IMG/VR virus record: IMGVR_UViG_3300033074_000977 | Coordinates: 1-64,000 of that record | Source: a virus | Lineage: Duplodnaviria; Caudoviricetes | Strand: one strand, 5' to 3' | Length of the DNA stretch: 64,000 bases | In this document: positions 1,459 through 49,810 of the stretch, one piece after another | Layout of the letters: each line of letters begins with the position of its first letter | How positions within the stretch are numbered: the first letter of the stretch is position 1 | Program-made: the position numbers and the translations under genes | The notes under the pieces: model-generated | Told to the model about the DNA's origin: nothing | The model's input: the letters and a program-made list of their open reading frames with translations, nothing else | The model's database searches: none

Positions 1459-2382
1459 ATGGCACAAACACAAGTAGATAACATGCGTTCGCGCTTGCTT
1501 AATAGCAATGCGCCCGATCCACGCGGCAGGGTAGCAGCTACGGCTACACTCACCGCGAACCAATTGAATAAATCTGGTGGCAGACTCAAACGCCCACCAT
1601 CCGCTGCAACCGTAGCCCAGCAAGCTAACGGCACGGATATTAAGTTTGACGATGGCACGTTCTATGCTGAAACGTTGCTTGATGATAACAATGGTTTCGT
1701 GGCTAACAAAGCTAAGACACAGCATACCTACCACGCGGTCAAGAAGTTTGAACTAGGCGACGAAGCCGCACCAACCCGCGCGGATGGCAGTCAATTGATT
1801 CAGTCGAAGCATACATTAGTGTTCGCTACTCCTGAATACCTTGCAGCCAAATCAAAGGACGCTGAATTGAAGCGGTGGCGCAATTTAGCTACAGCCATCG
1901 GCAAAGGCTTGGCTGACAGCAGCAACAAAGGTGTGACCATTGACGATGTGTCGAATTGGATACTTGGTCAACGCACTGACCGTCGCTGGCTGTTCAAACG
2001 CTACGATGGCAATGGGGTTGTATTCTGCAAGGCTGACGATAAAGGCGCGGTTGAATGGGATGATGTGCCGGATGCACAGCAGAAAACCATTCACAAGCAT
2101 CTGGCCGCAGCGAAGAAACGTCAAGGCGTGGACGGTGAGACAGATACCAGCACCGATATTAACGCTAAAATCGCGCGGCTGACGGTGCTGCTTGAACAGT
2201 ATTCCCCTGAGAAAATGGCGGAAATTGTGGAACGGCACGGTGCAGATAGTATGGTGGTGGACGCTTTGAATAAGGCTAAGGCTGCTTATGAGAAGGAACT
2301 GAAGCAAGCCGTGAAGACCCGTGACAACCAAGTGGCGAAAGCGTTGGCGAAAGGTGCGGCGGGGAAAGGGGCGGGGAAGTAA
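1459..2382 (+). CDS. hypothetical protein (307 aa)
   Basis: Long ORF, AAAGGA SD, no motif recognised. Confidence 0.8.
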   Translation: MAQTQVDNMRSRLLNSNAPDPRGRVAATATLTANQLNKSGGRLKRPPSAATVAQQANGTDIKFDDGTFYAETLLDDNNGFVANKAKTQHTYHAVKKFELGDEAAPTRADGSQLIQSKHTLVFATPEYLAAKSKDAELKRWRNLATAIGKGLADSSNKGVTIDDVSNWILGQRTDRRWLFKRYDGNGVVFCKADDKGAVEWDDVPDAQQKTIHKHLAAAKKRQGVDGETDTSTDINAKIARLTVLLEQYSPEKMAEIVERHGADSMVVDALNKAKAAYEKELKQAVKTRDNQVAKALAKGAAGKGAGK

Positions 2383-2388
2383 CCAGCG

Positions 2389-2526
2389 ATGGCGTACCAA
2401 AAACCCTACCGTTATAAACCATGCCGTAGGCTAACTACGGCTGAACATTTGATAAGGCTGGCTCTAGGGCTGGCCTTTATTTTTGGCGCAGCTTGGCTGA
2501 TTGCTAATGTTGTGCCGATGAATTGA
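2389..2526 (+). CDS. small membrane peptide (45 aa)
   Basis: Hand-translated; hydrophobic stretch LIRLALGLAFIFGAAWLIANVV. Confidence 0.45.
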   Translation: MAYQKPYRYKPCRRLTTAEHLIRLALGLAFIFGAAWLIANVVPMN

Positions 2527-2538
2527 GGAGAAATACGG

Positions 2539-2835
2539 ATGCCGTTATATCTTGAGCTATTTCACGGGCGTGACTATCCAGACGAGCAATTAGATGACTG
2601 GGGTAAGCAGGGACCAGTCTTAGGACCATTTGACTATGTGCATATTACGTACCTTACACACATACAAGCACGGTATAGCAATTCGGATAAGGTATTGGAT
2701 ATGGACGAAATTCGCATTGTTAATGACCTGATTCTGTACGCAGGTGTTTATTACGGTGACTGTACAATTCATTCAGAAGAGACTGTAAAAAGCTCCGAAG
2801 TTTTACAGAAGCTGTTGGTTGAAGTCCAACCGTAG
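2539..2835 (+). CDS. hypothetical protein
   Basis: ORF with GAGGAG SD. Confidence 0.75.
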   Translation: MPLYLELFHGRDYPDEQLDDWGKQGPVLGPFDYVHITYLTHIQARYSNSDKVLDMDEIRIVNDLILYAGVYYGDCTIHSEETVKSSEVLQKLLVEVQP

Positions 2836-2916
2836 CTTGCCGCTCGCAGCTAGTATGGGGTAGGGATAGCGTGATTCTATGCCTATGCTGTGGTAGCTGC
2901 TTGCGGGCGGTTATTT
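2833..2916 (+). promoter_or_regulatory. intergenic RNA hairpin, TAGCTTGC...GGTTATTT family
   Basis: CCGCTCGC pairs with GCGGGCGG; long imperfect stem with G-U pairs; ends 5 nt before ATG 2922. Confidence 0.55.
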
Positions 2917-4851: not shown

Positions 4852-5103
4852 ATGAACAACGTAGAAACACAATATCGCTTCAATGAACTTCCAGACGAAC
4901 TGGAAAACTGGCTAGTACCACCAAAATTCCTAGGTATGATGTCTGGGGCTAAGTACGCTAAGCAGAATAAACTGGGTGTGATTACCCTAACCTACGAAGA
5001 TGACATGACTGAAAGTGTTAGCTCTGACAGGGATTTGTTAACAGAATTTGGAGGGTTCCTGGAAGTGGTAAGCTATGTGCAAAGTTTTAGAAGTGTCGTC
5101 TAG
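4852..5103 (+). CDS. hypothetical protein
   Basis: ATG 4852 after GGAGG SD; in frame with ORF 4828..5103. Confidence 0.7.
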   Translation: MNNVETQYRFNELPDELENWLVPPKFLGMMSGAKYAKQNKLGVITLTYEDDMTESVSSDRDLLTEFGGFLEVVSYVQSFRSVV

Positions 5104-5536
5104 CGTGCAATCCACCCCACCCAAACTCCCACCCCGCCGACTCCTCCGCTACACCTACCACCTCTGTGAACGCTGCGGCTCGGAGTTGGATCCACGCTCA
5201 CGCTACTTCTGCCCCAGCTGCCGTCTCAAAGCACGAGCCGCCAACCGCCGACATGTGCAGCAACTCATCGCTGAGGGCAAATGCCGCAGCTGTGCTACCA
5301 CTCGTGAGCAACTGGATAAAACCTTATGTAACAACTGTTTACAGGAGTTACGCGATAACCATAAACGACGTAAGCAGGCGCGGATTGACGCTGGGCTGTG
5401 TGTGTTATGTGGGAAGGTGAATGTACAGGTGGCCGGTGGGAGATACCTGCGGTGTTTGGGATGTCGGGATAAAGAAGCCGCACAACAGCGAGCGGGGAGG
5501 TTGCGGAAGCGTAGAAGTGCATCCACAAATCGCTAG
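5075..5536 (+). CDS. Cys-rich multi-zinc-finger protein
   Basis: Six CxxC pairs with basic helices; start uncertain (GTG 5105 possible). Confidence 0.7.
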   Translation: MCKVLEVSSSVQSTPPKLPPRRLLRYTYHLCERCGSELDPRSRYFCPSCRLKARAANRRHVQQLIAEGKCRSCATTREQLDKTLCNNCLQELRDNHKRRKQARIDAGLCVLCGKVNVQVAGGRYLRCLGCRDKEAAQQRAGRLRKRRSASTNR

Positions 5537-5586: not shown

Positions 5587-7563
5587 ATGCCTGATGAAGT
5601 TATGCCTGTGCCCACACCAGATGAGCTAGAACCTGATGTCGGTAAGCTGGAGTTGGATCCCGAACCTGATACCGACGCTAACACCGAACCGTATCTCGAA
5701 TGTGACAACTGCCATGACATAATCCCAGCAGGCGCGGACACTTACGAAATGTCCGACCCGCCCAACCAAACTTGGTGCGTGGACTGCTACAACGACGAAG
5801 GTAGCCACTGTGAGGGCTGTGGCAACTATGTCGAAGTCAGCAGCTTAACTGAAGTCAGTTACCTTAACTGCGGTTTTACAGGGTGGAGCACTCGTGAGGT
5901 ATGTGAGAGCTGCTTAAACAGCGATTACCGCCAATGCGAACACTGTGACGATACTTGGTTCAATAGGGACCTCCGTAACTGGGCTGGGGATGAAGCCTGC
6001 CCAAGATGTCATAATAACGCAGCCTGTAGCTGCGACGACTGCGGTGCTGAATACTGGGATGGAGACAACCATTATGCATTCTGCGAAGGCTCACCCGATG
6101 ACGACAGTGACAGTTCAGCAATCCACGCGTGGGATTACGAGGTATTAAATACCTTAAACTTCCTCGGCCAACCCGCTGACAAACTATGGCTGGGTGTGGA
6201 ACTGGAAGTAGAGTGCAAGAGTGATAGTGGCTGGCATCGGGGCGAGCTGGCTGATGAAGTAGCCTATGCGATGCGCGACTTTGCGGTACTTAAATCCGAT
6301 GGCAGCCTCGATAACGGGTTCGAGATTGTCACCGCACCGGCCACTATAGAAATCCACCGTACTGAATGGACTAATCGCTTTTACGGCAAGTCCTTCATCA
6401 AGGGACTACGCAGCTGGGATGCGGGCACCTGCGGCTTGCACGTCCATATCTCGCGCAAACCGTTATCCAAGCTCACCCAAGCTAAGATCGTAGGGTTCTG
6501 TAACATCGAGGAAAACCGCACCTGGATGGAGAAACTAGCTGGGAGGACATCCAGTTACGCTGAGTTCAAGGATGTTGAGCAGCTGGGCAAGCAGTGGCGG
6601 CGGCAAAGTTCCCGCTATCGGGTAGTCAATGTCGAAAACGACGACACCCTGGAGTTCCGCATCTTCAAAGGCAGCCTCCGCCCGGAACGTCTCTGGCGTG
6701 CGCTGGAGTTCGTCCATAGTTTAGTAAAATTCTGTGAACAGACTTCCTTGGAAAAGTTACAGGCTAGCCAGTATTTGGAATGGCTGGGTAAGCATAAAAA
6801 GCTCTATCCCAGCTTGGCTGCGTTTTACTTTCCGAAAGCGGCAGCGGCTAAGCGCAACCCGAAGCAGCCAGGGTTATTTACGGTGGCGGCAGATAGTTGC
6901 CAGGGGGATGATAGTGGTAAGGGAGTTGTTACCTATGACGCTGAGCAGGAACTTGCAGCGCAACGTAAGATCGAGGAGCGTGTAGCTGAGCAGCGGCGGG
7001 CGCGGAAGGAGCGGGAACGGGAGTTGAAGCGACTGGAACGGGAACGGCTGGATGCTAGAGCAGCGGCTAGGGAGCCGGATTGGTATGGCAGTCGTGAACC
7101 TGTTGATGTGGTTGCGAGGGCGGCGGATGCCGAATTCCAAGCCTACGCTACTCCTGAGCGGATAGCTCAACGACGCGCATTTTACCAGCTGCAAATAGAT
7201 GAAGGTTCGCGGTCGGACTGGGAGGAAGTGCGTAGTTGTACACGGGGCTGTACCTGTCTAGACTGCCGTTTGATTGTGTATGTGGCTGAGTTGGTTATCC
7301 AGGAGCAGCGGGATGCAGAGGCTCAGACTGCGTATGACTACTCAGTGATGGAGGCGGTGCGGCACCTACGGCACGTAAGTGCTGCTTTTGTCAGTGTTTT
7401 ACCTGTTGAATCAACCGAACCTGCTAATCAAACCCTGACACCAACCTCAGACCTTACTGAAGCGGCTGCTGAACCTGAGCATCGGGAGGGTGGTGGAAGT
7501 GGTGTGGATAGAACCTTAACCTATGAAATGTTGGAGAACCTGTATCGGGATCTTCGATGGTAG
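5587..7563 (+). CDS. putative amidoligase (COOH-NH2 ligase, glutamine synthetase-like fold) with N-terminal Zn-ribbon repeats
   Basis: Motifs LGVELEVE, DGSL...FEIVTAP, TCGLHVHIS, RY..VN, TLEFRIFKGS; N-terminal CxxC repeats. Confidence 0.85.
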   Translation: MPDEVMPVPTPDELEPDVGKLELDPEPDTDANTEPYLECDNCHDIIPAGADTYEMSDPPNQTWCVDCYNDEGSHCEGCGNYVEVSSLTEVSYLNCGFTGWSTREVCESCLNSDYRQCEHCDDTWFNRDLRNWAGDEACPRCHNNAACSCDDCGAEYWDGDNHYAFCEGSPDDDSDSSAIHAWDYEVLNTLNFLGQPADKLWLGVELEVECKSDSGWHRGELADEVAYAMRDFAVLKSDGSLDNGFEIVTAPATIEIHRTEWTNRFYGKSFIKGLRSWDAGTCGLHVHISRKPLSKLTQAKIVGFCNIEENRTWMEKLAGRTSSYAEFKDVEQLGKQWRRQSSRYRVVNVENDDTLEFRIFKGSLRPERLWRALEFVHSLVKFCEQTSLEKLQASQYLEWLGKHKKLYPSLAAFYFPKAAAAKRNPKQPGLFTVAADSCQGDDSGKGVVTYDAEQELAAQRKIEERVAEQRRARKERERELKRLERERLDARAAAREPDWYGSREPVDVVARAADAEFQAYATPERIAQRRAFYQLQIDEGSRSDWEEVRSCTRGCTCLDCRLIVYVAELVIQEQRDAEAQTAYDYSVMEAVRHLRHVSAAFVSVLPVESTEPANQTLTPTSDLTEAAAEPEHREGGGSGVDRTLTYEMLENLYRDLRW

Positions 7564-7607
7564 TAAGTTACTCCCAACAAACAAGAAAGGATGAAACAAC
7601 AACAACC

Positions 7608-8576
7608 ATGTGTGTAATTATTCATAAACCAGCCGGGATCCAACTCGGCAAGAACAGTTCCGACCTCCTGCGCATCCTGCAAGATGCCGCTGCCATGAAC
7701 CGTGACGGGTTTGGCATCCAAGCCTGGGATAAGCGGGAAGGTAGCGGCAGGCTAGTCACCAACTGGAAACACGCTACTGACCAAGCGAAAATCTTAGAAG
7801 TAGCCTACACCAACCTTGACCGGATTGACTTAGAAGTAGTCGCGCACTGGCGTTTGGCTACGCACGGCGAGATCATCGAAGCTAACTGTCATCCGTTTCC
7901 GATTAACAGCAAGCTGAGCTTCTTCCATAATGGCGTGCTGAGTGGGTTTGGCAGCACGGTGAAAGGTGCGGAGAAATCCGATACCTTGGATTTCGTGGAG
8001 TCGGTATTACGTCCGCAGTTTGGTAGATGGCGCAGTAAGCCTAGTGAATGGCATAGCAAGCTGTTAGCTAAGTACGCGCAGGGGCAGCGGTTTGCCGTGA
8101 CAAATCATCGCGGTGAGGTGTGGCGGTTCGGGAGTTGGGTGGAGCAGGATGGTGTGTGGTATAGCAATGATTGGTTGCTGGGAGATACGTACAGCTATGT
8201 CAAAGGCTGGAGGCGACGGGATTGGCGGGATGAGCTGGATTACCTGGATGCTGCGGCAGCTGATTATGATGAGGATATGGAGGATGAGCTGGAATGGGAT
8301 AGTGAGCTGCATGAGTACGTGCCGGTAAAGTCCGTGCGTTGTGAGTGTTTTGGGGATATTTGTGGCGGGGAGCATGATTTGGTGTATGGCTGTCAGCGCC
8401 GCTCGAAGTATGAGGTTACGTTAACGGGCTGGAATGGGGATAAATATCGTAGCTACAGTTGTGCGGAATGCGCATGGCTGGGTGGGGTGGAAGGGGTGAG
8501 TGCGCCGACACAGCTATCGGGGCGCACAATTAAAGAGTCTGGTGAAGAAGTGGAGGTGATTTATGCCAGAAGTTGA
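7608..8576 (+). CDS. class II (Ntn) glutamine amidotransferase
   Basis: ATG 7608 gives N-terminal MC; motifs N.DGFG, HWRLATHG, NCHPF, HNG, SDT. Confidence 0.85.
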   Translation: MCVIIHKPAGIQLGKNSSDLLRILQDAAAMNRDGFGIQAWDKREGSGRLVTNWKHATDQAKILEVAYTNLDRIDLEVVAHWRLATHGEIIEANCHPFPINSKLSFFHNGVLSGFGSTVKGAEKSDTLDFVESVLRPQFGRWRSKPSEWHSKLLAKYAQGQRFAVTNHRGEVWRFGSWVEQDGVWYSNDWLLGDTYSYVKGWRRRDWRDELDYLDAAAADYDEDMEDELEWDSELHEYVPVKSVRCECFGDICGGEHDLVYGCQRRSKYEVTLTGWNGDKYRSYSCAECAWLGGVEGVSAPTQLSGRTIKESGEEVEVIYARS

Positions 8577-10594: not shown

Positions 10595-10596
10595 CT

Positions 10597-12570: not shown

Positions 12571-12585
12571 ACTTATCCACTGTGT

Positions 12586-12658: not shown

Positions 12659-12663
12659 TTGGT

Positions 12664-13885: not shown

Positions 13886-15517
13886 GTGGCGATGATAACT
13901 TTTGATGCACATGCACAGAACTCTTCCATAGTAACTCAGGAGGTTGAAGGAAATGACAGCAATGGCAGTAATAGCTATAGTGACAATCTTAATGGGGGTA
14001 TTGGCTGTACTAGCGCTTGTAGCAATGCAGCTACAATACTTGGCGAATATCCTAGCGAGCCGGATAGATCTAGTGAACATCAACCTGGATCTGATCCACA
14101 ACGCCCAGGAACGGCAGTTGTTGGAATTCAAGCAGTGGAACGAAACCCTGGAGGGGATCAACCAGGGCTATCCATCCTCTCCCCCGCCACCCTCGCAGCC
14201 CAACGCTTAATCGCCCAGATCCACCACCTCGCCGACCAGTACTGGGAAGAACCTGACCACGAAGCCTTAAACGTAGTACTAGCCTTCATCGCCAGCTACT
14301 TCCTGCACGAACGCAACCCCTTATGGTTACACATCGTAGGCGAATCCAGCAGCGGTAAAACCGAACTCGGTATGGCACCGGTCGCGCTGGACTATGCCGA
14401 ATTCCACCACCTTGATGATCTCACCTCCAACACCTTACTATCCGGCCTCACCAAAGGTAAAGATTCCGGTAAACGCAACAGCTTCCTGCACCGGGTAGGG
14501 ATCTTCGGCTTAGTCTACCAGGAGGACTTCACTACCTTCCTCGAAAAAGACGAGCGGATGGTCGGTGCAGTGGCAGGGCAGTTACGTAAAGTCTACGACG
14601 GTCAGCTTACCAAGGAAACCGGCGTGGAGACTCGTGACGGTAACGGTGGCTGGCAAGGTAGGATAAGTTGGATCACAGCTATGACCCCGGGCGCTGAACG
14701 GAAATGGGTGCGCCATAACCCAATGGGTGAGCGGTTCAGTATCGTGCGCTGGCGGGCCGCGCGGAATCACGAGGCCGTAAGTAAGAAGGTATTACTCCAG
14801 TCAGCGGTTGAAGCCAAGCTCACCTACCTAGACGCTGATAAACAAATGAACCAGCAGATCGCTGGCCCCAGGAAATGGATCGGTTGGCTGACGCAGATGC
14901 TGATAGAAGGTGAGCGATATGCTGGGCAGCTACCTGGGAATGGGATTAACGAGGGGTTATTACGAGAGCTGGTGAATCAACTGCAAGGGTTGGATTTAAC
15001 TCCGAAGCCGGATAGCCCTAGTGAACGGCTGGTGTATGACGGTGGATTGTACGCGCTGGCTGAGGTGGTAACGCAGCTGCGCACGATACCTAACCGTCCA
15101 GACGGCAGGAATATAGGTCAAGTGTTGGATAGGGAAAGCTCCGGTAGGTTGCAGCACCAGCTGATTAAGGTCGCCCGCGGGTGGGCCTACTTACACAGGC
15201 GCGAGGTAGAGGCTGCGGATATGCGGCTGGTGCAGCGAGTCGCTGAGGACAGCATACCGATCAGTAAGAAACCTATCGTGGATGCGCTGTATAAAGCGGG
15301 CCGGTCGGGTATGTGGATGGATGTGGATAGTTTGCGGCAGGAAGCTGGGTATCAGACTCAAGCGGCGCTGGTGTGGCAGTTGCAGGAATTGCTGGCGGTG
15401 GGGGTAGTGATGACCAGTGATGGGGATATACAGCGGAACTGGGAGAATCCTTACACGGAATGGAAATTAACTGAGCAGTTCGAGGAACTGTGGAGGAAAG
15501 GGGGATTGGGGAAGTAA
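13886..15517 (+). CDS. P-loop/AAA+ ATPase, probable replicative helicase (MCM/SF3-like)
   Basis: Walker A GESSSGKT; Walker B-like YQEDF; sensor/Arg-finger-like MGERF; low-complexity acidic N-terminus. Confidence 0.7.
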   Translation: MAMITFDAHAQNSSIVTQEVEGNDSNGSNSYSDNLNGGIGCTSACSNAATILGEYPSEPDRSSEHQPGSDPQRPGTAVVGIQAVERNPGGDQPGLSILSPATLAAQRLIAQIHHLADQYWEEPDHEALNVVLAFIASYFLHERNPLWLHIVGESSSGKTELGMAPVALDYAEFHHLDDLTSNTLLSGLTKGKDSGKRNSFLHRVGIFGLVYQEDFTTFLEKDERMVGAVAGQLRKVYDGQLTKETGVETRDGNGGWQGRISWITAMTPGAERKWVRHNPMGERFSIVRWRAARNHEAVSKKVLLQSAVEAKLTYLDADKQMNQQIAGPRKWIGWLTQMLIEGERYAGQLPGNGINEGLLRELVNQLQGLDLTPKPDSPSERLVYDGGLYALAEVVTQLRTIPNRPDGRNIGQVLDRESSGRLQHQLIKVARGWAYLHRREVEAADMRLVQRVAEDSIPISKKPIVDALYKAGRSGMWMDVDSLRQEAGYQTQAALVWQLQELLAVGVVMTSDGDIQRNWENPYTEWKLTEQFEELWRKGGLGK

Positions 15518-15729: not shown

Positions 15730-15737
15730 TTTCTCAA

Positions 15738-15766
15738 TTGACAGCCTGTCCGTCAACTGATATACT
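15738..15766 (+). promoter_or_regulatory. sigma70-type promoter for the recombination/replication operon
   Basis: TTGACA, 17 nt, TATACT; operator TGACAG-N5-CCGTCA at 15739-15755. Confidence 0.8.
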
Positions 15767-15776
15767 TACAACCATT

Positions 15777-16091
15777 ATGAGCAATCAATCCGGCGCTAGG
15801 ACCGCCCTTACAACCATCCTTACTTCGTCAAGTGCTGCCGTGCCAACAACCACCGACCAACGCGTCCGGGTCTTTCGACTCCGCGTACTCAACTGCACTG
15901 ACTTCGACCATTACACCACACTCTACTGCCGCGCGGGTCGTAACCAATTCGAGCACGACATCTACTTCAACCCTGACACCGAGGAGAAGTTATTCGATGC
16001 GGTGCGGGCCGGGAAGGTGCCGTTGGATAAGGTATCGGTAGGGGAGGTGATTGGGTGGCTGATGGAGCGGGGGATTGAGAGTTTAGGTTAG
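15777..16091 (+). CDS. hypothetical protein (near-leaderless)
   Basis: ATG 15777 in frame with ORF 15738..16091, whose TTG start is the promoter -35. Confidence 0.65.
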   Translation: MSNQSGARTALTTILTSSSAAVPTTTDQRVRVFRLRVLNCTDFDHYTTLYCRAGRNQFEHDIYFNPDTEEKLFDAVRAGKVPLDKVSVGEVIGWLMERGIESLG

Positions 16092-16104
16092 GGAGTGTAG
16101 TGTT

Positions 16105-19057: not shown

Positions 19058-19064
19058 TTTAGCT

Positions 19065-30430: not shown

Positions 30431-30446
30431 TGATCACCTTCCTTTG

Positions 30447-30716: not shown

Positions 30717-30720
30717 AAGC

Positions 30721-31032
30721 TTACCTATTCTCCTTATCCAGCTGGTCAATCAGCTGATCGTTCTTTAGTTTAGATTTCAGATCCTCTGGTGAGGATCCTT
30801 CGGGTAGGTTGAGCGCGGTAAGCAGCTGGTTCAAATGCAGCTTACCCAGCGCGTACTTCTCCAGTACCGACCAAACCACCGCTGCCAGGAATACCGGCAG
30901 CAGCGTGGCAATCTGGCCAGCGGTGGATTCGTCTACGATTTGTTTGGTAAGTAACCATGTGCTAACGGTGAGTAAGAGGTTCCGCAGCACGCCGGTTACG
31001 ATGGACATCAGGATAGATTTTACTAGGCTCAT
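30721..31032 (-). CDS. putative holin
   Basis: Two TM segments; R..LLTV..WL...D......LL......WS..EK pattern as in Pam3 gp28-type holins; ATG 31032. Confidence 0.6.
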   Translation of the reverse strand: MSLVKSILMSIVTGVLRNLLLTVSTWLLTKQIVDESTAGQIATLLPVFLAAVVWSVLEKYALGKLHLNQLLTALNLPEGSSPEDLKSKLKNDQLIDQLDKENR

Positions 31033-31070
31033 TGGGGGAGTCACCTTTGTGTTTAGGTTGTCAAGTCTAT

Positions 31071-31817: not shown

Positions 31818-34800
31818 TACTTATTCACACTCCCTGCCGCTGCCTTCCGCTGCTGCATCAACTGCAACTGCTCCTCTGCCAACGTCGGCCTACCCGCACG
31901 CTTACGTTCCTTATCCTCCACCCGACGCTCCCAACGATTGAACTCCCCAGCATCCTCCAGCTTCCGCTCCACCTCGGGATACCGGCTCAACACTTCTTCG
32001 AATGCATCATCTGCCACCGCCCGCGCGACATCATACGTATCCACGATCTTCTGGTCGATGTCCATGTGCTGCTGAGTAGCTTCCAAATCAGCGGTACGTT
32101 CCTTCATCAGCCTACCTATAGTAGCTACGAGATCCCGGTCTACCTCTGTTACACCCGTGAACGGGATCCAGTCGGTGAGCTTGATCCCCGCGTGCTGGAA
32201 GATCCGTGCCGGGTAGGATTGCTCGGGTAGGACAGTAAACCCGGTGATAGCTTTAATAGCTGGTAAGTCAGTACGATGTACCGGCATCCCGGTGTACGGG
32301 TCGATCTTATCGGAGAGTTGCTCACGCGCAACTGGCACACGGTTAAGGATCGGCGCGAATAAACTCCCTGCACCCATGCCGTAGAGATCTTTCACGTCAC
32401 GCATTGAAGTGAAGTATTGTGCACCGATGTCGGTGTACATATTCAGCGGGGTTAGGTACCTACCGAACCAATCACTGAACGCGGTCGCCGCAGCTTCAGC
32501 AGCCTTGGTGCCCTTGTTCCCGGTTTGATCCTGCGCAGCGGTTATTAAATCATCCAGCCATTTGAACGTGCCCGTGATATTCCGCATATCCAACCCGGCC
32601 AGGATGTTGAAGAACTCCAGTGCTGAGTCAGCTTCCGGCGCGGCTAACCCCCGGCGTTGACGCGCGATGTAATCAGCCACATATAACGGAGCTACCAGCT
32701 GTGGGACGTTACGCACCGACACCCCGCCTACACTATGCCACGAACCAACCGGCTTGCCTGTGCGTTCAGCCTCGTCGTATTTATCTTCGATCATTGCTGC
32801 CACTGCCACGTATACTGCGGTACCCAGGGTAGCTTTGATCAGCTTCTGGTGGTTCTCGACGGTCGGGCCGGACTCACCCGCGCCTACCAGCGCAGCTTTG
32901 ATAATCGGTAACGGTGAGTAATCCAGTACCATCTTGGCGTAGTTGCCCATAAACCCGACAAATGGAAACACAGCTGAAGTTAACACCGCAGCCGGGTCAT
33001 TGGACTTGGCATACCAGTTATACGCTTGCGCAGTTAGTGACCCCGGTTCCGGTCGGGTTGCATATGTATCCTGCAACGCTTGGTTAACCGCACGCTCTAC
33101 CACCGCAGCCGGTAGTTTATGGATCTCATTCGCAGTATCCAGCTGCTCCAGATCCAACCCATACCTAGCTGCTTCGGTTTCTAAATTACTCACTAAACTA
33201 ATCGTCCGCACGAACCGCTCACCCATCCGCGCGAGGGTTAGGTATTTATGCAGTCCGCGTGAGGCTTCGTGCAGTACCTTCGGCAACCAGCGGTCAGATT
33301 TAGCTAACCTAGCCTCAGCTTCTTTAATCCGTGCCAGCCGCTGAAACTTATCTGCCCCTGCGGGCATATTCGTGACTTGGTTTTTCAGTAGAGTTAAAGC
33401 ATCCCGCTCAGCTTGCACGGCCTCAGCATGCGGTAACAGATGGATCTGGATCACATCATCGCTAAGCTGGCTATCGAACTTCCGCATTAACTCCGGCTGG
33501 AAGTTATGCAGCTCCTGCGCTATGCGAATAGACTTCTCAGCTGGACGGTCAGCGGGGTCGTTCAGCGTTCCATCTTTTAACTTGCCGTGCGCGAACCAGT
33601 ACGGATTATTAAGTATATCCTTGGTTACGTTGCTCGCTGCGAACACCGGTGCCAGCACCGTACTTAACGGCGGCACCGAATTCTGTTCAAACTTGCTTGG
33701 CTCCCCCGGCCCACCTGTTAGCTCGCGCTTGCTCCCAATCGCCCGCTCAATCACCTGATCAGCTAGGTTGATAATGCTTCTAACTCCGGTGGCGTTCACC
33801 AACCCAGTCACCACGTTAGGGGTTTGCGTAGCCAGTTGCGCAATCGTCGCCCCTATATTCAAGTTCACCAGCTGCCGCGCGATACTCGGCCCATTCGCAA
33901 TCGCGTCGATCTCCTGCATCGTCGGCGGGCGGGAGTTGATCCAATCGTCGAGTTCGGGCGACAACCCACGAAGTTTATTGATCTCACGCTGCTGGCGGGC
34001 GAAGATGTTAAGGTCGCGGCCAGCGGCGGAACCGAACTGCCGGAAGCGCTCGAACAGTTCAACCGTATCTTTTAACCCGTAACGCTTGGCTACTTCGTCC
34101 AGCTGGGGCACGGTGGTACGTCCGGTACGCATGGCGTTGATCAGCTGATCCGTAGTGGACATTTCGCTGCTGTCAAGTAGCGGCACATCCGAAGCTATCA
34201 ACATATCCTTAGCTACGTTGGCTAGGAAGTTCCCGTATTCGTTGGACATCCGCACTTGGTCTAGCGGCGCGTCAATCGGTGGAAGTTGATCACCGTTGGC
34301 CAACCTACCTTTAGCCGCCAGCTTCGCTTCAGCACGTTTCCGCGCGGTGTTATCCCCTAGTTGTCCGGCTAACTCACCCTTGAGTACGCTACCACGACTT
34401 CGCAGCTCACGGAACTTCTTCACTGCTGCAACGTGCTGTTGCTTTAACTCAGTACCTAGCTGTTGGATCTCAGCATCCAACTCAGGCTGCGGTAGTCCAG
34501 CATCCTGCTGCATTTTAGTCGCAGCGGCGGCGAGGTCGTTATTGCGGCGGATTCGCGCGCGCAGGTTAGCTATCTCACGGTAAGCTTTACGTTCAGCTTC
34601 GCGTTGGGTAGCTACCTGCTGCGAGATCTCTGACGATGCGTTGGTTTTACGGAGGTGAGTGATGTCTGGATCCAGCTCCAGCTTACCTGCTGCTTCGTCA
34701 GCGGCTTCCCCCGCTGGGTTGGCGGCGTCGTAATCAGGATCCGGTTGGATGTTCAATGGGATAGCTTGACCTTGGTAGAGGACGGCTTCGCGCATTGCGG

Positions 34801-37800
34801 GGGTGATGTCGAATGCGTATCCTTTCAAAGATACATCCTTGTTGACTGTAAACGACTCCGCAAATCCGTGCAGATCTGGATCTAACAAGGCAAAAATATC
34901 TTCAATGTCATCAGGGGTTGCAAGAGATTGCTCAGTTGTATCCGGCTTGTGGAACTCATCAACCTTCCCACCGAATTTCTTCAGAATATTATTCGTCGTA
35001 TTGATCAAATTCCGATCATAGAACCACCCCGACTTCCCACCCACCGACTTATCTGCATCCTCCCCACGTACCCATGCCACCCGATCATAACCATTCTCAG
35101 CAGCGTAGCGGATCATCCGCCGCATAGCTAACTCAGGCCAGGTCTTTTTGAAGGGGCCGTCCGGGACTTTTAGATCTGAATCACGCTTCATTCTGTTTAA
35201 CTTGGTAGTTAACACGGCTGCTTGTTTATTTAACTCTTCATAACGAGCGTATATTTCATCTGTAGGGTTACGCATGTATTCTACATAGGCTTTATCAGCT
35301 AACTCAATAGCCTTAGTTCGCTGATTATCCAGTTCGTCCAAAGCTTTATTATCACCTATGTATCCCTGCTTCGCCCCAGCCTGATGCCAGTCACTCTGCA
35401 CTTCCTCGATAAACAACACCTTCTCACCGTTGCTGCCAGTGCGGTCGGTCATGCGCACATGGGCTAGGATGTTCGGTTCATCGAAGTGGCTTGAGCGGTA
35501 GTTATCATCGGCTGCCGGAATTCTAGGATCATCCTCAGCAATCCAACGATCATCTACGCCGCCCTTCTCAGGTAATGTAAGTAACAACTCCCGGTAGTTC
35601 GAGGATTCACCGGGTTGGACATAGGTGGAATACTTAGTTGTATCTTTACTCAGCTTCTGTTCTAGGGCTTCCCGTTGACGATTAAGTTCAGCCAACTCCG
35701 CGTTTTCTTCGTCTGTCAGTAATCTGGCTAACCTTCCATCAGGATAAAACTCATTGTACCAACTATCAATTGCGGCATTTACTTTACGCAATTCAACGAA
35801 GTCTTGTTGATCCCTACCTTTCCAAACCTCCTTCACCTCAACCTGCCTCCGTGCCACCTCCGCCAACACCTCATCCCTAGTAACCTTCCTCCCGCCCTGC
35901 TCCTCCAACCAATCCTGCACCCCAGTCCATTCCAACTCCCCTGGGCGTAACCCTGCATTCTTTAACTGTGCTTGAAGTTGTTTCGCGGGCACCGGCCCAT
36001 TGACCTTACTCTTAATATACCGCTCCAGCCCGCTGTACCAAGTTGGCGCGAGGATATCTGCGTCATAGTTTGGATCTTGTTGCTTGCTAAGATGCGGCTG
36101 ACGGTTCACACCATACCCATTGTCAGGTAGCCGCTCCGGGAACTTCGGCGTTTCCACTCCCCGCCATTCCAACCCCAACCGCTTACCACTAACCGGATCC
36201 CGCGAATAACGCACTCGATTAGCTTCATATAGTCTCTTGAAAGCTACAGCGGCTACCTCCCGATCCATCCGCCCCACCCACACCTGCTCCATCACCCCCG
36301 GCCCGTGTTTATCCATCACCGCCGCAAAGTAATCCCCGACCAACACCCCGCGCTCCTGCTTACTCAACCCCAACCCAGGATCCGGCCCAGGCTGCGCGGC
36401 ATATGCAATCGCCTCATTCGTCCATTCCACCGGGTCGTACCCTTGCAGCGGCGACTTACTATCCCCTATCCCTAAAATAACCTTCGCGCCAATCGGATGA
36501 TCCGCCAGCCACCCAGGGCTGACCGTAGCCCGCGGGTCCACCCCCAGCTCCTTGGCGATTTTATCCGTCTGGACATGGATGCTCTCGTGCCCGGTTACGG
36601 TTTGATCGAACGCACGTGCTACTGGGTTAGCCGGATCCGCCGCTTTCTGCTTATTCAACACCCGTAACGCTGCGGATCGTTCACCGCCAGCTGTGGCAGC
36701 TTGTAGATGTTCAGCTAAACTCTCGAACACCACCGCGCCCGTGGCTAGGTCATTCAACTTCGGATCACCATTCGGTAGCTGCTTGATAGTTTCCTTGAAC
36801 TGTGCTGCCTTCTCTAGTAAATGCTCCGCTACCAGCCCGGCATCACGCGCGGGTAAACTCATCCCCTGCGCCACCCCGGACATTATCTTACTGCCGGGTA
36901 ATACTGCCTGACTTGCACGGTCAATCACTGCCGCCGCTTGTGGGTTAAGGTACAGCACGCCTTCCGGGTCGGCTGGATTATCCACCAGTTGCACGCGTGC
37001 TTTATTAAGTAATCCAACCGTGACCCGGTTATCCCAGGGCAGATCCTGCGGTTGCCAGAAGTCCTGTCGCAAGGCAGCTAAGTTATCTGGAGGTAGGTCT
37101 AAGTTGTAGCTACTCGGATCCAACTCACCGCTCATCCGTGTCGCAGCCTGGGTAGCCTTGCGTGACCTGCCACTCCCGCCCAATACCACCGGGTCCATAA
37201 TCACGTTCGCCACACCGCCGTGTAAGTAATCCAGCCAGTCCGGCGCAGGCTGACCTGGATGTAACATTCCATCCACTCCAGTCTGTGCTATCCCACCTAC
37301 CAGCTGCGCGCCTGCCTGTGCGGCTACGGGAGACTTCTTCAACAGATCCACCACCGGCCCCGTGCGCGGAGTCTTCCGTATCACATTCGCAGTCTTACCC
37401 AACGCTGACAGCAGCACCCCTTCCGCCGCCCCTTGCACGAATGCACCAGCTAAGGTGGCAGGATCCTGCTCACCAGCTGCGTGTAGCGACTCCGCTTTGT
37501 AAACCCCGAACCCAGCTGCTGGACCAAGTAGCTCCGTCGCCACTGCCATCTGTGGGAGTTGGATACCCAGCTGCGTCAGAAATCCCACCGTGCGATCCAA
37601 CGCTCCACGTTCTTTAATCGGTCGCGCAATGTCGTAATTCTCGAATGTCGGTGCAGATTCCTTGGCGATGTTACTAAGCGCCTTCCCCAGATCGCCCAGC
37701 ACGGTTGGCATGTCATCTGACCCGAACACGTCCTGTAGAACTTGACCAGTTAAGGCTAGGCTGTTGTTCAACCCTTGGTAGCCGTAGCGCATTATTGAAC

Positions 37801-38236
37801 TTAGCACCAACCCAGATCCAGGTTGAATTGCACCGGTAGCCGATAACGTAATATCCGGCACCGTAGTCAGCTCCTCGAACCGACGTGCCTCCGCCTCGCG
37901 CTCATCGCGTAGCCGATAATCCGCCAACTCAGCTGGAGTCATCCGGGCGTTCTCTATGAAGGCGTATACCCTGCGTGCACGCCAGTCGAATGGGTTAGCC
38001 GGATCCGCCGCCTGCATAGCCGGTTGATCAGCTAGCTTACGCGCTACCTTGCTTACCCGGGCACGCGGCTTAGCCACCGGACGCTTGCTCGCAGCTGCCA
38101 CCACCTTCTCAGCTGTAGTCTGTCCAGGGTTAAACGCGAGTTTCTTCAGCGGATCTACATAATCCTGCGGCTGGTCTAGGTCGCTGATGATCGCAGCTGG
38201 AATTACTTTGCGCTGCTTCTTGCTTTGTGGAGGCAT
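31817..38236 (-). CDS. large internal virion/ejection protein of polyvalent type (2139 aa)
   Basis: Position after two ejection-like genes; HESIH (36575-36589) plus NEAIA; SHF..PNILAHVR...LFIEEVQSDWHQ...YAAENGYD domain; helical C-terminal region with FPF motif. Confidence 0.7.
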   Translation of the reverse strand: MPPQSKKQRKVIPAAIISDLDQPQDYVDPLKKLAFNPGQTTAEKVVAAASKRPVAKPRARVSKVARKLADQPAMQAADPANPFDWRARRVYAFIENARMTPAELADYRLRDEREAEARRFEELTTVPDITLSATGAIQPGSGLVLSSIMRYGYQGLNNSLALTGQVLQDVFGSDDMPTVLGDLGKALSNIAKESAPTFENYDIARPIKERGALDRTVGFLTQLGIQLPQMAVATELLGPAAGFGVYKAESLHAAGEQDPATLAGAFVQGAAEGVLLSALGKTANVIRKTPRTGPVVDLLKKSPVAAQAGAQLVGGIAQTGVDGMLHPGQPAPDWLDYLHGGVANVIMDPVVLGGSGRSRKATQAATRMSGELDPSSYNLDLPPDNLAALRQDFWQPQDLPWDNRVTVGLLNKARVQLVDNPADPEGVLYLNPQAAAVIDRASQAVLPGSKIMSGVAQGMSLPARDAGLVAEHLLEKAAQFKETIKQLPNGDPKLNDLATGAVVFESLAEHLQAATAGGERSAALRVLNKQKAADPANPVARAFDQTVTGHESIHVQTDKIAKELGVDPRATVSPGWLADHPIGAKVILGIGDSKSPLQGYDPVEWTNEAIAYAAQPGPDPGLGLSKQERGVLVGDYFAAVMDKHGPGVMEQVWVGRMDREVAAVAFKRLYEANRVRYSRDPVSGKRLGLEWRGVETPKFPERLPDNGYGVNRQPHLSKQQDPNYDADILAPTWYSGLERYIKSKVNGPVPAKQLQAQLKNAGLRPGELEWTGVQDWLEEQGGRKVTRDEVLAEVARRQVEVKEVWKGRDQQDFVELRKVNAAIDSWYNEFYPDGRLARLLTDEENAELAELNRQREALEQKLSKDTTKYSTYVQPGESSNYRELLLTLPEKGGVDDRWIAEDDPRIPAADDNYRSSHFDEPNILAHVRMTDRTGSNGEKVLFIEEVQSDWHQAGAKQGYIGDNKALDELDNQRTKAIELADKAYVEYMRNPTDEIYARYEELNKQAAVLTTKLNRMKRDSDLKVPDGPFKKTWPELAMRRMIRYAAENGYDRVAWVRGEDADKSVGGKSGWFYDRNLINTTNNILKKFGGKVDEFHKPDTTEQSLATPDDIEDIFALLDPDLHGFAESFTVNKDVSLKGYAFDITPAMREAVLYQGQAIPLNIQPDPDYDAANPAGEAADEAAGKLELDPDITHLRKTNASSEISQQVATQREAERKAYREIANLRARIRRNNDLAAAATKMQQDAGLPQPELDAEIQQLGTELKQQHVAAVKKFRELRSRGSVLKGELAGQLGDNTARKRAEAKLAAKGRLANGDQLPPIDAPLDQVRMSNEYGNFLANVAKDMLIASDVPLLDSSEMSTTDQLINAMRTGRTTVPQLDEVAKRYGLKDTVELFERFRQFGSAAGRDLNIFARQQREINKLRGLSPELDDWINSRPPTMQEIDAIANGPSIARQLVNLNIGATIAQLATQTPNVVTGLVNATGVRSIINLADQVIERAIGSKRELTGGPGEPSKFEQNSVPPLSTVLAPVFAASNVTKDILNNPYWFAHGKLKDGTLNDPADRPAEKSIRIAQELHNFQPELMRKFDSQLSDDVIQIHLLPHAEAVQAERDALTLLKNQVTNMPAGADKFQRLARIKEAEARLAKSDRWLPKVLHEASRGLHKYLTLARMGERFVRTISLVSNLETEAARYGLDLEQLDTANEIHKLPAAVVERAVNQALQDTYATRPEPGSLTAQAYNWYAKSNDPAAVLTSAVFPFVGFMGNYAKMVLDYSPLPIIKAALVGAGESGPTVENHQKLIKATLGTAVYVAVAAMIEDKYDEAERTGKPVGSWHSVGGVSVRNVPQLVAPLYVADYIARQRRGLAAPEADSALEFFNILAGLDMRNITGTFKWLDDLITAAQDQTGNKGTKAAEAAATAFSDWFGRYLTPLNMYTDIGAQYFTSMRDVKDLYGMGAGSLFAPILNRVPVAREQLSDKIDPYTGMPVHRTDLPAIKAITGFTVLPEQSYPARIFQHAGIKLTDWIPFTGVTEVDRDLVATIGRLMKERTADLEATQQHMDIDQKIVDTYDVARAVADDAFEEVLSRYPEVERKLEDAGEFNRWERRVEDKERKRAGRPTLAEEQLQLMQQRKAAAGSVNK

Positions 38237-47514: not shown

Positions 47515-48050
47515 TACTGCTTACCTCCTTGGAGTTCCGGTTCCGCAAACGACCACTTGCCATCCTTATCCTGACTCGCTTCGCAAGTAGCACACTTGAA
47601 CTCTTTGCGCTGTGCCAGGATCCATTCGTTGATCTGCTTCATCGACGTAGCGAATTGACTATACAGTTTGCTCTGCCGATCAAACACCGCTGCACGGATG
47701 GTTTCATCCTGTGACTCGTAGATCTTGGGATCCGAGATATAGTTGAGCAACGCACGCTCGGAGAGGTTACGCTGATCTACTAACTGGGAGATCTTGGTAG
47801 CCAGGGCTTCGGGGAGGGGGTAGGATTTGCGGGCCGGAGCCAACGCTGAAACCGTGGGAGTAGGTAATGGGATGGTGGACGACACACTGTTATTTGACGG
47901 GCCGCTAACTACTGGTTTGTTATCCTGGGTCGCTGCGCCCACCCCCACTGGCTCACCCTTCGCCCACACGAACGCAATCACAGCCATTACGATGATCCCC
48001 AGGATCAACATTCCAATTTCTCGACGGGTTTGTTTATTTGACGTAGACAT
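47514..48050 (-). CDS. membrane-anchored protein (possible spanin-like)
   Basis: N-terminal TM, Pro/Ser linker, helical domain; directly after the endolysin. Confidence 0.5.
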   Translation of the reverse strand: MSTSNKQTRREIGMLILGIIVMAVIAFVWAKGEPVGVGAATQDNKPVVSGPSNNSVSSTIPLPTPTVSALAPARKSYPLPEALATKISQLVDQRNLSERALLNYISDPKIYESQDETIRAAVFDRQSKLYSQFATSMKQINEWILAQRKEFKCATCEASQDKDGKWSFAEPELQGGKQ

Positions 48051-48066
48051 TTCTATTCGACCTTCC

Positions 48067-48669
48067 TTATGTACTTGTTGTTGCAGTTAGCGGCGTCAGG
48101 GTAGGCGTCTGCTGGATACCGCTATCCAATCCCAACGCCGCCTTAGCCTTCTTAGTTCGTTCAATTCTATCACCGAGGCCATTACTTCCGCCATTGATTT
48201 TACGCGTAAGCCCAACAATATCATCAGCATCGGCAAATTTATTACAGTTGTTATCCTGCCAGAACAACCCCGCAGCTCTAAATCCATGCTCTGGAGTACT
48301 TAGCAGTTCCGGGTGGGCTACGCAGTCGATCTGTAATGCCTTGGCTACACGGGTATAGTTAGCCCGACCGGTGGTTTGAATCGGCCCACGCCCCATATAC
48401 CGCTTGCCATCCCCAGCCACCACGTTCCCCAGATCCAACCTGCCTTCATAGCGTAGCTGTGCCTTGGTTGGCCCCCATAGCTCTACCCAGTATTTCAGAT
48501 CCATACTCTCGTGCGCGAGCTGCCCGAGAAAATGAGCCGCGCGGAGGGGTGTGTTAATCCCAAACTCCTCCAGCGCGGCGTTCAACGGATCCAGGTATTG
48601 CTTAGCACGGGGTCGATCCAACCCCCGCATTGAACGGTAAAGTTGTTCTTCGGTTAGTTGGAAGGACAT
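48067..48669 (-). CDS. glycoside hydrolase family 19 endolysin
   Basis: R.AHFLGQLAHES; Y.GRG.IQ.TGR.NY; A..FW; TRKINGG.NG..DR. Confidence 0.9.
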   Translation of the reverse strand: MSFQLTEEQLYRSMRGLDRPRAKQYLDPLNAALEEFGINTPLRAAHFLGQLAHESMDLKYWVELWGPTKAQLRYEGRLDLGNVVAGDGKRYMGRGPIQTTGRANYTRVAKALQIDCVAHPELLSTPEHGFRAAGLFWQDNNCNKFADADDIVGLTRKINGGSNGLGDRIERTKKAKAALGLDSGIQQTPTLTPLTATTST

Positions 48670-48796
48670 AGTTAGTTAAGCTCCTTTGATACGTTAATTA
48701 CGTCACCACAGTAATCGTCTGTGCTTCTTCAGCCAACGGCATACAGATCCATTTCGTGCCGTCACAAACGATATGCCAGATGTTACTATCTGTGTG

Positions 48797-49810
48797 CTAA
48801 TTCTGTGTGGCAAAACAGCGCCACACACCATTGAGCCGGACAGCAAGTGCCCCATTGCCACCTGACGTGCAGGTATTGTCTGCTCCGCTTGTTACCTGAC
48901 AATCGGTGCAGATCGCAAACGTGTTTGCGGCTGTGCCTAAATTGGCAAAGGCTACACCGTTGTCATTGCCTAGAACTCCGGTTGCCCTCACGCTAAACCG
49001 TATATCACCCGATGCTGTGCCGCCGCGCACAGACAGCAGCTTGCGATTTACGATTGAACTTAACGTTCCATTATTGGGGTCGCTTGCACTGTCTGTGCGA
49101 AACGCGGCAAGATCAAGCAGTCCGAAAGTTGATGAGTCGCTAGCGTCACTAGCGGCGCTTGTCATTGCACGAAATTGAAACCCTGACTTATCCGCATCCA
49201 CCTGATAACCAGCAGCCATCGCTACTAACGCGGCATCGGTGCTAGTGGCATTGCCTAAATACAGGGCGTTATTTCCTGCGTCGCTAACTGTGCCTTTGAG
49301 AATTTGCTCGCGTATGCCCGACCCGGAGCTAATTGTGACTAATACCGAGCCGGTGCCTTTTGGTGCAAGAATTAAATTTTCATTGCTCCCGCTGCTTGTG
49401 ACTCCAAGGGTTATACCACTCCCCGCCGCCGCCCCCGTCACCTTCACCCCAGTAGCTTCACTTGCTACCGAGCAATCCACGGCAAACGTTGGATTCGTGC
49501 TCCCATTCGGCCCCACCGCCATACAAGGGTTACTGGTACTCGTAACGATAACCGGTGTGCTGAATGAGCTGCTACCCGAGAACGTTACAGTCACCGTCTG
49601 CCCAGCCCTCGTCAAACTCCCATTCGGAAACACCAACGTCTGCGTCCCAGGCACATTTGGAGATCCATCTACCTCTTTAACACGCACGCCACTACCTGCT
49701 GGGTAGTTTCCTCCCCCTGATTGTTGGGCATAACTGGATAGCGGTAAAAGTACTGCAATCATAAATAGATTGAGTACTGCGGTAATTAAGTGTCTGTACA
49801 TAAAAATCAT
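48797..49810 (-). CDS. tail-fibre-like protein with N-terminal signal peptide
   Basis: ATG 49810 after GAGGAG; LITAVLNLFMIAVLLPLSSYA-QQ; Gly/Ser/Thr beta-rich fibre segments. Confidence 0.6.
   Translation of the reverse strand: MIFMYRHLITAVLNLFMIAVLLPLSSYAQQSGGGNYPAGSGVRVKEVDGSPNVPGTQTLVFPNGSLTRAGQTVTVTFSGSSSFSTPVIVTSTSNPCMAVGPNGSTNPTFAVDCSVASEATGVKVTGAAAGSGITLGVTSSGSNENLILAPKGTGSVLVTISSGSGIREQILKGTVSDAGNNALYLGNATSTDAALVAMAAGYQVDADKSGFQFRAMTSAASDASDSSTFGLLDLAAFRTDSASDPNNGTLSSIVNRKLLSVRGGTASGDIRFSVRATGVLGNDNGVAFANLGTAANTFAICTDCQVTSGADNTCTSGGNGALAVRLNGVWRCFATQN

Follow-up and report, generated by a model that had tools for sequence, protein, structure and literature searches.

Skew blocks and genes in the window

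The window, that is the whole stretch of DNA analysed (64,000 nt), belongs to an uncultivated wastewater phage whose genes lie on two converging arms, the + arm being the early/replication arm. The genes abut or overlap, and at 58 of the 81 gene junctions no more than 25 nt separate them. Near gene starts the silent codon positions of this phage, and of part of its clade, are rich in C (A/C), and near gene ends they are rich in G (G/T). The genes and segments carrying these blocks are the following.

5075..5536, + strand: 153-aa ORF with the clearest polarity; a G-block follows a C-block at nt 6-195, where the sense C>G skew reaches 0.42; third positions cCgG
5587..7563, + strand: 658-aa amidoligase-like gene; about 160 codons C3-rich, then about 200 codons G3-rich; third positions.CCCC.c...gGGgG.
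7557..8576, + strand: 339-aa GATase-like gene; first half C3-rich, second half G3-rich
13886..15517, + strand: 543-aa ORF; a reset inside it at 14167, a C-block at nt 271-450 (skew 0.46) and a long G-block
15738..16091, + strand: 117-aa gene; full C-to-G polarity, with resets at 15717 and 16129 on either side
19187..20200, + strand: 337-aa gene; third positions CCcgg..G
20586..21362, + strand: 258-aa gene, an example already in the initial annotation; C-block at nt 1-165, a 3' G-block, and resets at 20495 and 21370 on either side
25707..28478, + strand: UDG-PolA fusion polymerase; fourfold skew with a C-rich start, a G-rich end and an internal wiggle
29717..38236, - strand: gene run, G3-rich over most of its length, the + strand thus being C-rich
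34747..36150, - strand: segment of the 2139-aa gene, with internal resets at 34952, 35743 and 36150
51832..56961, - strand: 1709-aa gene, C3-rich throughout and without polarity

Because the - strand genes at 29717..38236 are mostly G3-rich, the + strand remains C-rich for about 8 kb beyond the point where the two arms converge. The uniformly C3-rich 1709-aa gene means that whole-gene skew states also exist.

A gene-anchored polarity at silent positions

The C-to-G skew polarity at silent codon positions of the wastewater phage is real. Over the opening 60 codons of genes the coding-strand G-C skew at fourfold-degenerate sites is -0.13; it reaches +0.07 in the middle part and +0.30 over the closing 60 codons, so that synonymous sites are affected as initially proposed, and by gene decile the third-position skew climbs from -0.04 to +0.29. 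Measured against 1000 synonymous shuffles, the mean third-position slope is 0.225 compared to 0.065±0.018 (z=8.9; none of the 1000 as high), and of 83 genes 56 slope upwards (p=4e-5). The initial annotation, built on six hand counts in 60-nt windows that are all exact on recount, would have given the pattern up had the slope vanished under amino-acid control; it persists at 8.9 SD above the shuffles. Local skew is also more variable than a binomial expectation (SD of G-C per 60 nt 8.0 versus about 5.6), most of this excess variance is unexplained by gene-relative position, and whole genes are G3- or C3-rich. The correlation length of third-position G/C is about 30-45 codons, and a k-mer comparison along genes revealed no single enriched k-mer that accounts for the C- and G-blocks.

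All three codon positions take part (slopes 0.154, 0.077 and 0.184 at first, second and third positions), and amino-acid use shifts towards gene ends, with R, E, V and W up and P, H and T down. The fourfold T-A skew rises together with the G-C skew (0.02, 0.10 and 0.19 along genes), the keto fraction goes from 0.47 to 0.63, and the window correlation between GC3 and TA3 is +0.25, compared to -0.05 to -0.11 in controls. By base, fourfold sites lose C (-0.10) and A (-0.055) along genes and gain G (+0.14) and T (+0.02). In the glycine box GGC falls from 0.40 to 0.18 while GGG rises from 0.20 to 0.36, and two-fold codons of the + arm shift strongly from start to end (AAG 0.38 to 0.65, GAG 0.35 to 0.56, CAG 0.39 to 0.65).

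Both arms carry the polarity, the + arm more strongly (z=6.8; skews -0.26/-0.01/+0.35) than the - arm (z=3.2; -0.05/+0.10/+0.27), and in the source genome gene starts deviate from each arm's own baseline as far as gene ends do, in the opposite direction. The strand symmetry stressed at the outset is thereby present, but it is not separate evidence, because a C-rich-then-G-rich unit is its own reverse complement in composition and the symmetry follows automatically. On the + arm the amplitude is similar across all gene-length classes. The three genes above 1000 aa have internal blocks without an overall gradient. Where a neighbouring gene lies no more than 25 nt away, the last 50 codons have a skew of 0.34; where the gap exceeds 80 nt or no gene follows, the value is 0.30, and the polarity therefore does not need an adjacent gene.

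There are 39 abrupt strong G-to-C resets and 34 abrupt C-to-G switches in 73.7 kb. Since the two are about equally common, the profile is block-like rather than a true sawtooth; what stands of the sawtooth originally described is its C-rich starts and G-rich ends. Start codons coincide with 41% of the G-to-C resets against 17% expected by chance, and others fall inside long genes, both as first noticed. Among seven resets named earlier, those at 11115, 14160, 31830, 41190 and 45245 are in the top 5% of a 150-nt left-minus-right skew statistic, but those at 38860 and 46680 are weak. The average reset is sharp, no more than about 20-40 nt from the start codon. In comparisons of reset size with intergenic gap, the upstream window turns non-coding.

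Several resets (14167, 15717, 16129, 20495, 25209, 29104 and 36150) lie 6-60 nt from recombination breakpoints, two of these resets being inside ORFs. The reset in the 543-aa ORF is 6 nt from a population breakpoint at 14173, the pair flanking the 117-aa gene coincides with cassette indel junctions (15512>15737 and 16099>16311), and the segment at 34747..36150 is the part replaced or diverged in the relative L004 (breakpoints 34747 and 36098). The two close relatives compared, L004 and L005, match the phage in a mosaic of identity whose breakpoints fall for the most part at gene borders. In wastewater libraries, strain variants omit whole small genes exactly at borders, and on the + arm variants with whole-gene cassette indels at borders occur. 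C-G transversions are rare among strain variants. By such sequence comparisons, the borders are real recombination junctions.

Distribution among relatives and published parallels

The polarity is a clade trait. It is found in the two close relatives, the only ones obtained from a metagenome scan, and in a sizeable part of a distant clade whose polymerases are UDG-PolA fusions, where loci have a mean z of 1.96 with 15 of 47 above 3, compared to a mean of 0.49 and 0 of 59 for random viral loci (MWU p=3e-5). It is not present in T7 or lambda. The effect is mainly at the 5' side in relative G002 and mainly at the 3' side in G001, and mid-gene fourfold skews of relatives span -0.28 to +0.45. The fourfold profile of the UDG-PolA gene is common to 33 orthologues at 30-46% identity and is conserved at saturated divergence, interior features included (pairwise r 0.25 versus 0±0.016). 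Searches with megablast and tblastn against cultured phages gave nothing closer than 25% identity, and a single-protein scan of viral contigs gave no matches. An N4-like phage was suspected first and rejected, as the scanned proteins include neither a virion RNA polymerase nor any further polymerase family.

Silent sites of phages are usually read as the outcome of host codon usage plus a uniform strand bias. Here they hold a strong signal of position in the gene which reshapes protein composition too and is inherited across a clade. The nearest published parallels are fungal genes and GRINS. In fungal genes the coding strand carries a C bias near its 5' end and a G bias near its 3' end, which reach fourfold sites and show in amino-acid usage, and the cause is undecided between mutation and adaptation. 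The same order (5' C-bias, intermediate middle, 3' G-bias) is found on both arms of the phage, as is the joint involvement of fourfold sites and amino acids. The phage differs in that its genes are packed in long operon-like arms with resets at translation starts or module borders, whereas fungal genes are transcribed singly by Pol II, with skews that reach into promoters and UTRs, and in that the T-A skew of the phage co-varies with its G-C skew. Whatever its cause, the polarity provides a compact and testable bacterial-virus counterpart of the unexplained fungal skew.

GRINS (2021, PMC8256042) resemble the phage in abrupt alternation of G/T-rich and A/C-rich coding blocks that is strongest at third positions, in shifted Gly/Val/Trp versus Pro/Thr/His usage, and in a link to recombination or gene conversion; third-position and amino-acid shifts of this kind are found here. 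GRINS are, however, defined as repeats above 500 bp with more than 80% identity within a cluster (PMC8256042), and the 64 kb contain no direct repeat of at least 40 nt and one 44-nt inverted pair at 70%. Their mean |GC| and |TA| both exceed 0.15 in 150-nt windows with r about 0.7, compared to genome-wide values of 0.155 and 0.113 here, and the GC-TA correlation, 0.70 in GRINS, falls here to 0.25 at third positions and to 0.06 when all sites are taken. No phase with gene starts or ends has been reported for them.

Replication-associated GC and keto skew, in which the leading strand is G+T-rich, shares the axis (G, T versus C, A) and the switching of sign at defined points, but has one switch per replichore, changing sign only at origin and terminus, whereas the phage has the 39 strong G-to-C resets and 34 C-to-G switches counted above, the resets being enriched at start codons. 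Ordinary replication skew and a uniform coding-strand skew are, as the initial annotation held, not the explanation.

Candidate origins of the polarity

Neither mRNA folding nor translation is probably what the gene-anchored polarity serves. The reading towards which we lean, tentatively and short of calling it probable, is that the polarity is the footprint of DNA mutation or repair that treats the two strands unequally and is anchored at gene and module borders prone to recombination. Breaks and recombination junctions would arise, or persist, at borders; 5'-3' resection would leave the strand with the 3' end single-stranded or resynthesised on both sides of a break, and this strand would drift towards G/T. 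Any one strand would then be G/T-rich just before a border and A/C-rich just after it, which is the observed sign, and the polarity would be independent of gene orientation. We infer both mutation, rather than selection, as the writer of the polarity and the resection mechanism.

Consistent with such a footprint, the pressure is at the nucleotide level, acting on all three codon positions and shifting amino-acid use, and the G-C and T-A skews move jointly. The symmetric 5' and 3' deviations, the independence from neighbours, the null folding tests given below, the resets near breakpoints, the stronger + arm with its cassette indels and the restriction to a clade were also counted in its favour. 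Against it, the 5' and 3' effects separate in G002 and G001, a split that one symmetric process would not predict, and C is lost mostly to G rather than T and C-G transversions are rare among strain variants, so that simple single-strand deamination gives a poor quantitative fit. The conserved PolA profile is equally well explained by selection, the sharpness of the average reset speaks against mutation and repair as well, and the breakpoints are confounded with gene borders, the close relatives compared being two. T7 and lambda recombine freely and yet lack the pattern, and a clade-specific factor would thus be needed.

More doubtful than the footprint itself is its extension to a phage clade in which a recurrent, border-anchored, strand-switching DNA process writes gene and module borders into silent sites. 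Candidate steps are breaks at cistron starts, made where the replisome runs into an uncoupled RNA polymerase; resection would come next, and then recombination-dependent repair involving the unusual UDG-PolA and hypermodified-base chemistry of the clade. If such a process exists, skew polarity would be a readable record of sites of break and recombination in phage genomes; if the polarity is mutational at all, it would point to a strand-specific process at gene borders and offer a sequence-only readout of recombination hot spots.

The main rival, possible although doubtful, is selection on nascent RNA composition tied to transcription-translation coupling. The cistron start would be ribosome-free in the pioneer round, and G-poor, C-rich RNA there may avoid R-loops or permit Rho-dependent polarity. 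In the 3' parts, an excess of G over C would protect the sense transcript from Rho, and RNA arising from antisense transcription or read-through would be strongly targeted by it. What chiefly determines targeting by Rho is the amount of C relative to G along 150 nt or more of a nascent transcript (Dierksheide et al. 2026, PMC13323073), C>G over such a length being an experimentally defined target feature, and G-rich sense strands yield C-rich antisense RNA that Rho can terminate (PMC13323073). That work describes a uniform whole-gene purine bias, not a within-gene switch with C-rich starts. In the phage, 14 sense-strand zones in 13 genes have a C-G skew above 0.37 and have the strong C excess over at least 150 nt of a rut region; such windows are few but cluster in the first gene quarter, usually from or near the start codon. 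G-rich windows, C-rich in antisense, make up 4% of sense windows, compared to 0.7% in random phage DNA, and 11-13% in the second half of + arm genes. The third-position correlation length is near a rut-sized unit, and the sharp reset at start codons, the C-rich + strand past the convergence point and the PolA profile kept across deep divergence fit as well. However, the most exposed RNA is the most C-rich, so that the 5' sign is opposite to what Rho avoidance predicts, and T increases in the 3' zones although T-richness favours Rho (PMC13323073). If selected, the polarity would represent an unrecognised operon-design rule (Rho, R-loops or coupling) of relevance for recoding or expressing phage genes.

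Unlike the border-anchored footprint, a passive mosaic would require no process tied to gene position, the blocks being modules from relatives with widely differing baseline skews. The range of mid-gene skews among relatives, the strongly mosaic identity to the close ones and the variance unrelated to gene position all suit it. It is nevertheless unlikely, as random import cannot yield a consistent C-to-G direction (z=8.9), the direction is the same in relatives, and the profile is conserved within one orthologous gene, PolA, for which persistence of the polarity across relatives in collinear, uniformly similar segments is already partly shown.

Slightly less credible is codon choice for translation, with A/C-ending codons (Watson-Crick, G34/U34 tRNAs) at starts and G/U-ending wobble codons at ends giving fast-to-slow elongation. 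The amino-to-keto axis at third positions fits this split, as do the + arm two-fold codons, but fourfold boxes swap C mainly for G, which is read by another tRNA species rather than being the wobble partner, first and second positions shift too, and T7 and lambda are without the pattern. The general published trend at gene ends is towards A-rich codons (PMC6892556), to which the polarity runs counter.

Fold-back of mRNA or ssDNA, first proposed at kb scale, would pair the C-rich 5' part of a unit with its own G-rich 3' part, or a G-rich end with the C-rich start of the next gene. It is very unlikely and, on the in silico evidence, largely refuted; five tests gave no support to predicted RNA folding as the cause. 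Compositionally, each half of a unit complements the other, and the + arm amplitude is similar across length classes, but native genes show no gain in whole-gene MFE over synonymous shuffles, whether global or local (z -1.7 to +0.8). Predicted long-range 5'-3' pairs exceed shuffles in two short genes alone, without MFE gain: in one, 68 pairs between the 5' and 3' thirds compare to 28±16 in global shuffles, with gradient-preserving local shuffles reaching 58, and in the other 52 compare to 36±14 in global and 23±12.5 in gradient-preserving shuffles (z about 2.3). Genes of 774 and 921 nt have no such excess. The initial annotation would have given up fold-back if 5'-3' pairing did not exceed that of shuffles, and this is in essence the outcome. 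Junction windows are predicted to fold no better than non-cognate, intragenic or swapped-order windows, and their cross-junction pairs equal those of intragenic windows. The related proposal of unstructured 5' and structured 3' ends fares no better, as local 90-nt MFE in 39 genes is flat along the gene (-22.4 native, -22.1 shuffled), and the predicted RBS opening energy is unchanged between native and shuffled flanks (9.84 versus 9.42 kcal/mol). A cause in the downstream RBS or translational coupling is rejected, the 3' G zone being equally strong without an adjacent gene. SD-like motifs increase and CCUCC decreases towards gene ends, roughly as composition predicts.

Silent-site polarity along genes

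Recounting the six 60-nt windows whose C and G content had been tallied by hand in the initial annotation returned exactly the same values. Across 83 genes, defined as the longest non-overlapping ORFs on the strand of their arm with starts taken as longest-ORF guesses, the coding-strand G-C skew climbs along genes at codon positions 1, 2 and 3; at third positions it moves from -0.04 to +0.29 by gene decile, with a positive slope in 56 of the 83 genes (p=4e-5). Measured by absolute distance, third positions hold 0.35 C and 0.22 G in codons 21-40 and 0.18-0.21 C and 0.33-0.39 G in the last 60 codons, and the skew at fourfold sites is -0.13 in the first 60 codons, +0.07 in the middle and +0.30 in the last 60. 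When synonymous codons are shuffled within each gene the third-position slope is 0.065±0.018, compared to the 0.225 observed (z=8.9), and the trend thus persists with the amino-acid sequence controlled. It is present on both arms, as first proposed (+ arm z=6.8, - arm z=3.2). From the first to the last third of + arm genes, CTG rises from 0.32 to 0.63 and CTC falls from 0.27 to 0.08, while GGC goes from 0.40 to 0.18, CGG from 0.14 to 0.39 and AAG from 0.38 to 0.65. The amplitude differs little between short genes (45-100 aa) and long ones (400-1000 aa). The gene-anchored C-to-G polarity is real, and it is not ordinary for phages.

Third-position slope in other phages and viral loci (z against synonymous shuffles)
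T7: z = -1.1
Lambda: z = -0.5
Random IMG/VR loci, ~80 (747 kb): slope averaging 0.025; skew at fourfold sites -0.09, -0.05 and -0.06 from gene start to end; z>3 in 0 of 59
Two close relatives, the only two compared (PolA identity 94%): z = 6.3 and 5.6
Distant clade with the UDG-PolA fusion, 47 loci: mean z 1.96; z>3 in 15; MWU p=3e-5 against random loci
Distant relatives, three complete genomes: both strands show the gradient, z 1.7-8.1

The same polarity has been described in fungal genes (PMC3315797), and full-text literature searches found no description of it for phages. According to published work (PMC6892556), genes in general favour A-rich codons near their ends; this phage does not match that trend. 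Among the random loci, positive slopes are slightly over-represented (mean z 0.49; above 2 in 10 of 59 and below -2 in none), and in several of the highest-scoring ones the most C-rich zone is the first 60 codons; the 5' effect could be common across phages in a weak form.

Blocks, resets and recombination borders

The pattern is block-like. The standard deviation of sense skew in 150-nt windows is 0.18, compared to 0.11 in T7 and lambda and 0.13 in random loci, and the G/C autocorrelation at third positions is positive out to ~45 codons. Abrupt switches from G to C (resets, 39) and from C to G (34) are about equally numerous, but a start codon lies within 75 nt of 41% of resets, against 17% expected and 6% of C-to-G switches. 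The mean reset is sharp and lies within 20-40 nt of the start codon, in A-rich surroundings. Seven resets had been listed by eye; five fall in the top 5% of the reset statistic, while the other two do not. Strand symmetry, also pointed out at that stage, is seen but carries no separate weight, since a unit that is C-rich and then G-rich is identical when read on either strand.

Identity to the two close relatives (L004 and L005) switches between 68% and 95%, with breakpoints mainly at gene borders, and strain variants in wastewater libraries omit whole small genes precisely at borders (for instance 10581>11008, 15512>15737, 16099>16311). By these sequence comparisons, gene borders are real recombination junctions. 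Several resets lie 6-60 nt from breakpoints, two of them within ORFs (reset 14167, breakpoint 14173; reset 36150, breakpoint 36098). Contigs of four wastewater RNA-library runs join across 2526-2831, 10581-11008, 15512-15737, 16099-16311 and 19058-19172; strains present together therefore lack entire small early genes or have replaced them, the junctions falling precisely at gene borders. At 13964-14173, contigs from three runs diverge fully from the window, with loose ends at either side, the N-terminal part of the 543-aa ORF (13886..15517, + strand) having been replaced.

Possible causes of the polarity

We tentatively rank first the footprint of a strand-asymmetric mutation or repair process anchored at borders. 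Resection would start from breaks at borders and would leave G/T-rich sequence before the border and A/C-rich sequence after it, on either strand, which predicts the observed sign. The T-A skew at fourfold sites climbs together with the G-C skew (0.02, 0.10, 0.19), the keto fraction goes from 0.47 to 0.63 along genes, and the windowed correlation of the two third-position skews is +0.25, compared to about -0.1 in controls. Known strand-asymmetric mutation runs along this joint axis, and so do GRINS (PMC8256042), which the pattern also resembles in its abruptness and link to recombination, although the GRINS repeats are not found here and the skew is less intense. Neither the 3' G zone nor the 5' C zone depends on the distance to neighbouring genes, which argues against coupling or RBS functions. 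The fourfold-site profile of PolA is common to 33 orthologues of 30-46% identity (correlation with this genome r 0.36 on average, 91% of values above 0; pairwise r 0.25 against 0±0.016 with permuted bins), which selection would account for equally well, and an interior G-to-C step lies near residues 366-522, where relatives have insertions or a split gene. The ends are separable among relatives, G002 having mainly the 5' and G001 mainly the 3' effect, and C at fourfold sites is swapped mostly for G and less for T; both count against a single symmetric process.

The main rival is selection on nascent RNA, ranked somewhat lower. An excess of C over G across at least 150 nt is the experimentally defined Rho signal (PMC13323073) and the C-blocks start at start codons, but the sign at 5' ends is the reverse of what Rho avoidance would give, and T changes in the wrong direction.

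Fold-back of C-rich 5' onto G-rich 3' ends, the explanation initially favoured, ranks lower still, together with wobble decoding and passive mosaicism. Whole-gene MFE is not below that of synonymous shuffles (z -1.7 to +0.8), and among the genes folded only two short ones have excess 5'-3' pairing, one matched by gradient-preserving shuffles and the other modest and with no gain in MFE. Nor is there support for unstructured 5' and structured 3' ends, as had also been suggested, the 90-nt local MFE being flat along genes and equal to shuffles. Folding at gene junctions is no different from that of non-cognate chimeras or of windows inside genes, and the opening energy of the RBS does not change. 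RNA structure as a cause is supported by none of the folding tests.

Genome and gene content

The record is 73,728 bp long and rated complete by CheckV, the window being its first 64 kb; no close cultured phage was found. About 45 + strand genes (971-29533) converge on ~40 - strand genes, which include three of 2139, 1354 and 1709 aa. Recognisable features comprise:

4646-4739: tRNA-Val, anticodon AAC, with an unusually long body of 94 nt (ARAGORN)
5587-8576: adjacent amidoligase-like (PHROG 16683/2443) and class-II GATase-like genes
12585-12659: tRNA-Trp(CCA) (ARAGORN), in a nearly ORF-free region (12.1-13.9 kb)
25707-28478, + strand: UDG-family-4/PolA fusion polymerase
Further functions: RecD/Dda-like helicase, PD-(D/E)XK nuclease, HNH endonuclease and SU10-type adaptor

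Pairs of amidoligase and class-II GATase are typical of thymidine-hypermodification clusters, and by this analogy the phage DNA may contain modified T. The UDG-family-4/PolA fusion is common to 63 metagenomic proteins. In relatives PolA is split or interrupted near residues 366-522: G002, for example, has separate ORFs of 394 aa and 624 aa, and G004 a frame of 1664 aa that contains additional segments. Within the helicase gene (849 aa), segment 21925-22982 has a low GC content (0.45) and no counterpart in the close relative L004; it is possibly a domain gained by insertion or exchange. Just beyond the convergence of the arms, the + strand is C-rich for ~8 kb (29700-38236; skew down to -0.26), and read-through RNA from the + arm into this region would be strongly C-rich and G-poor.
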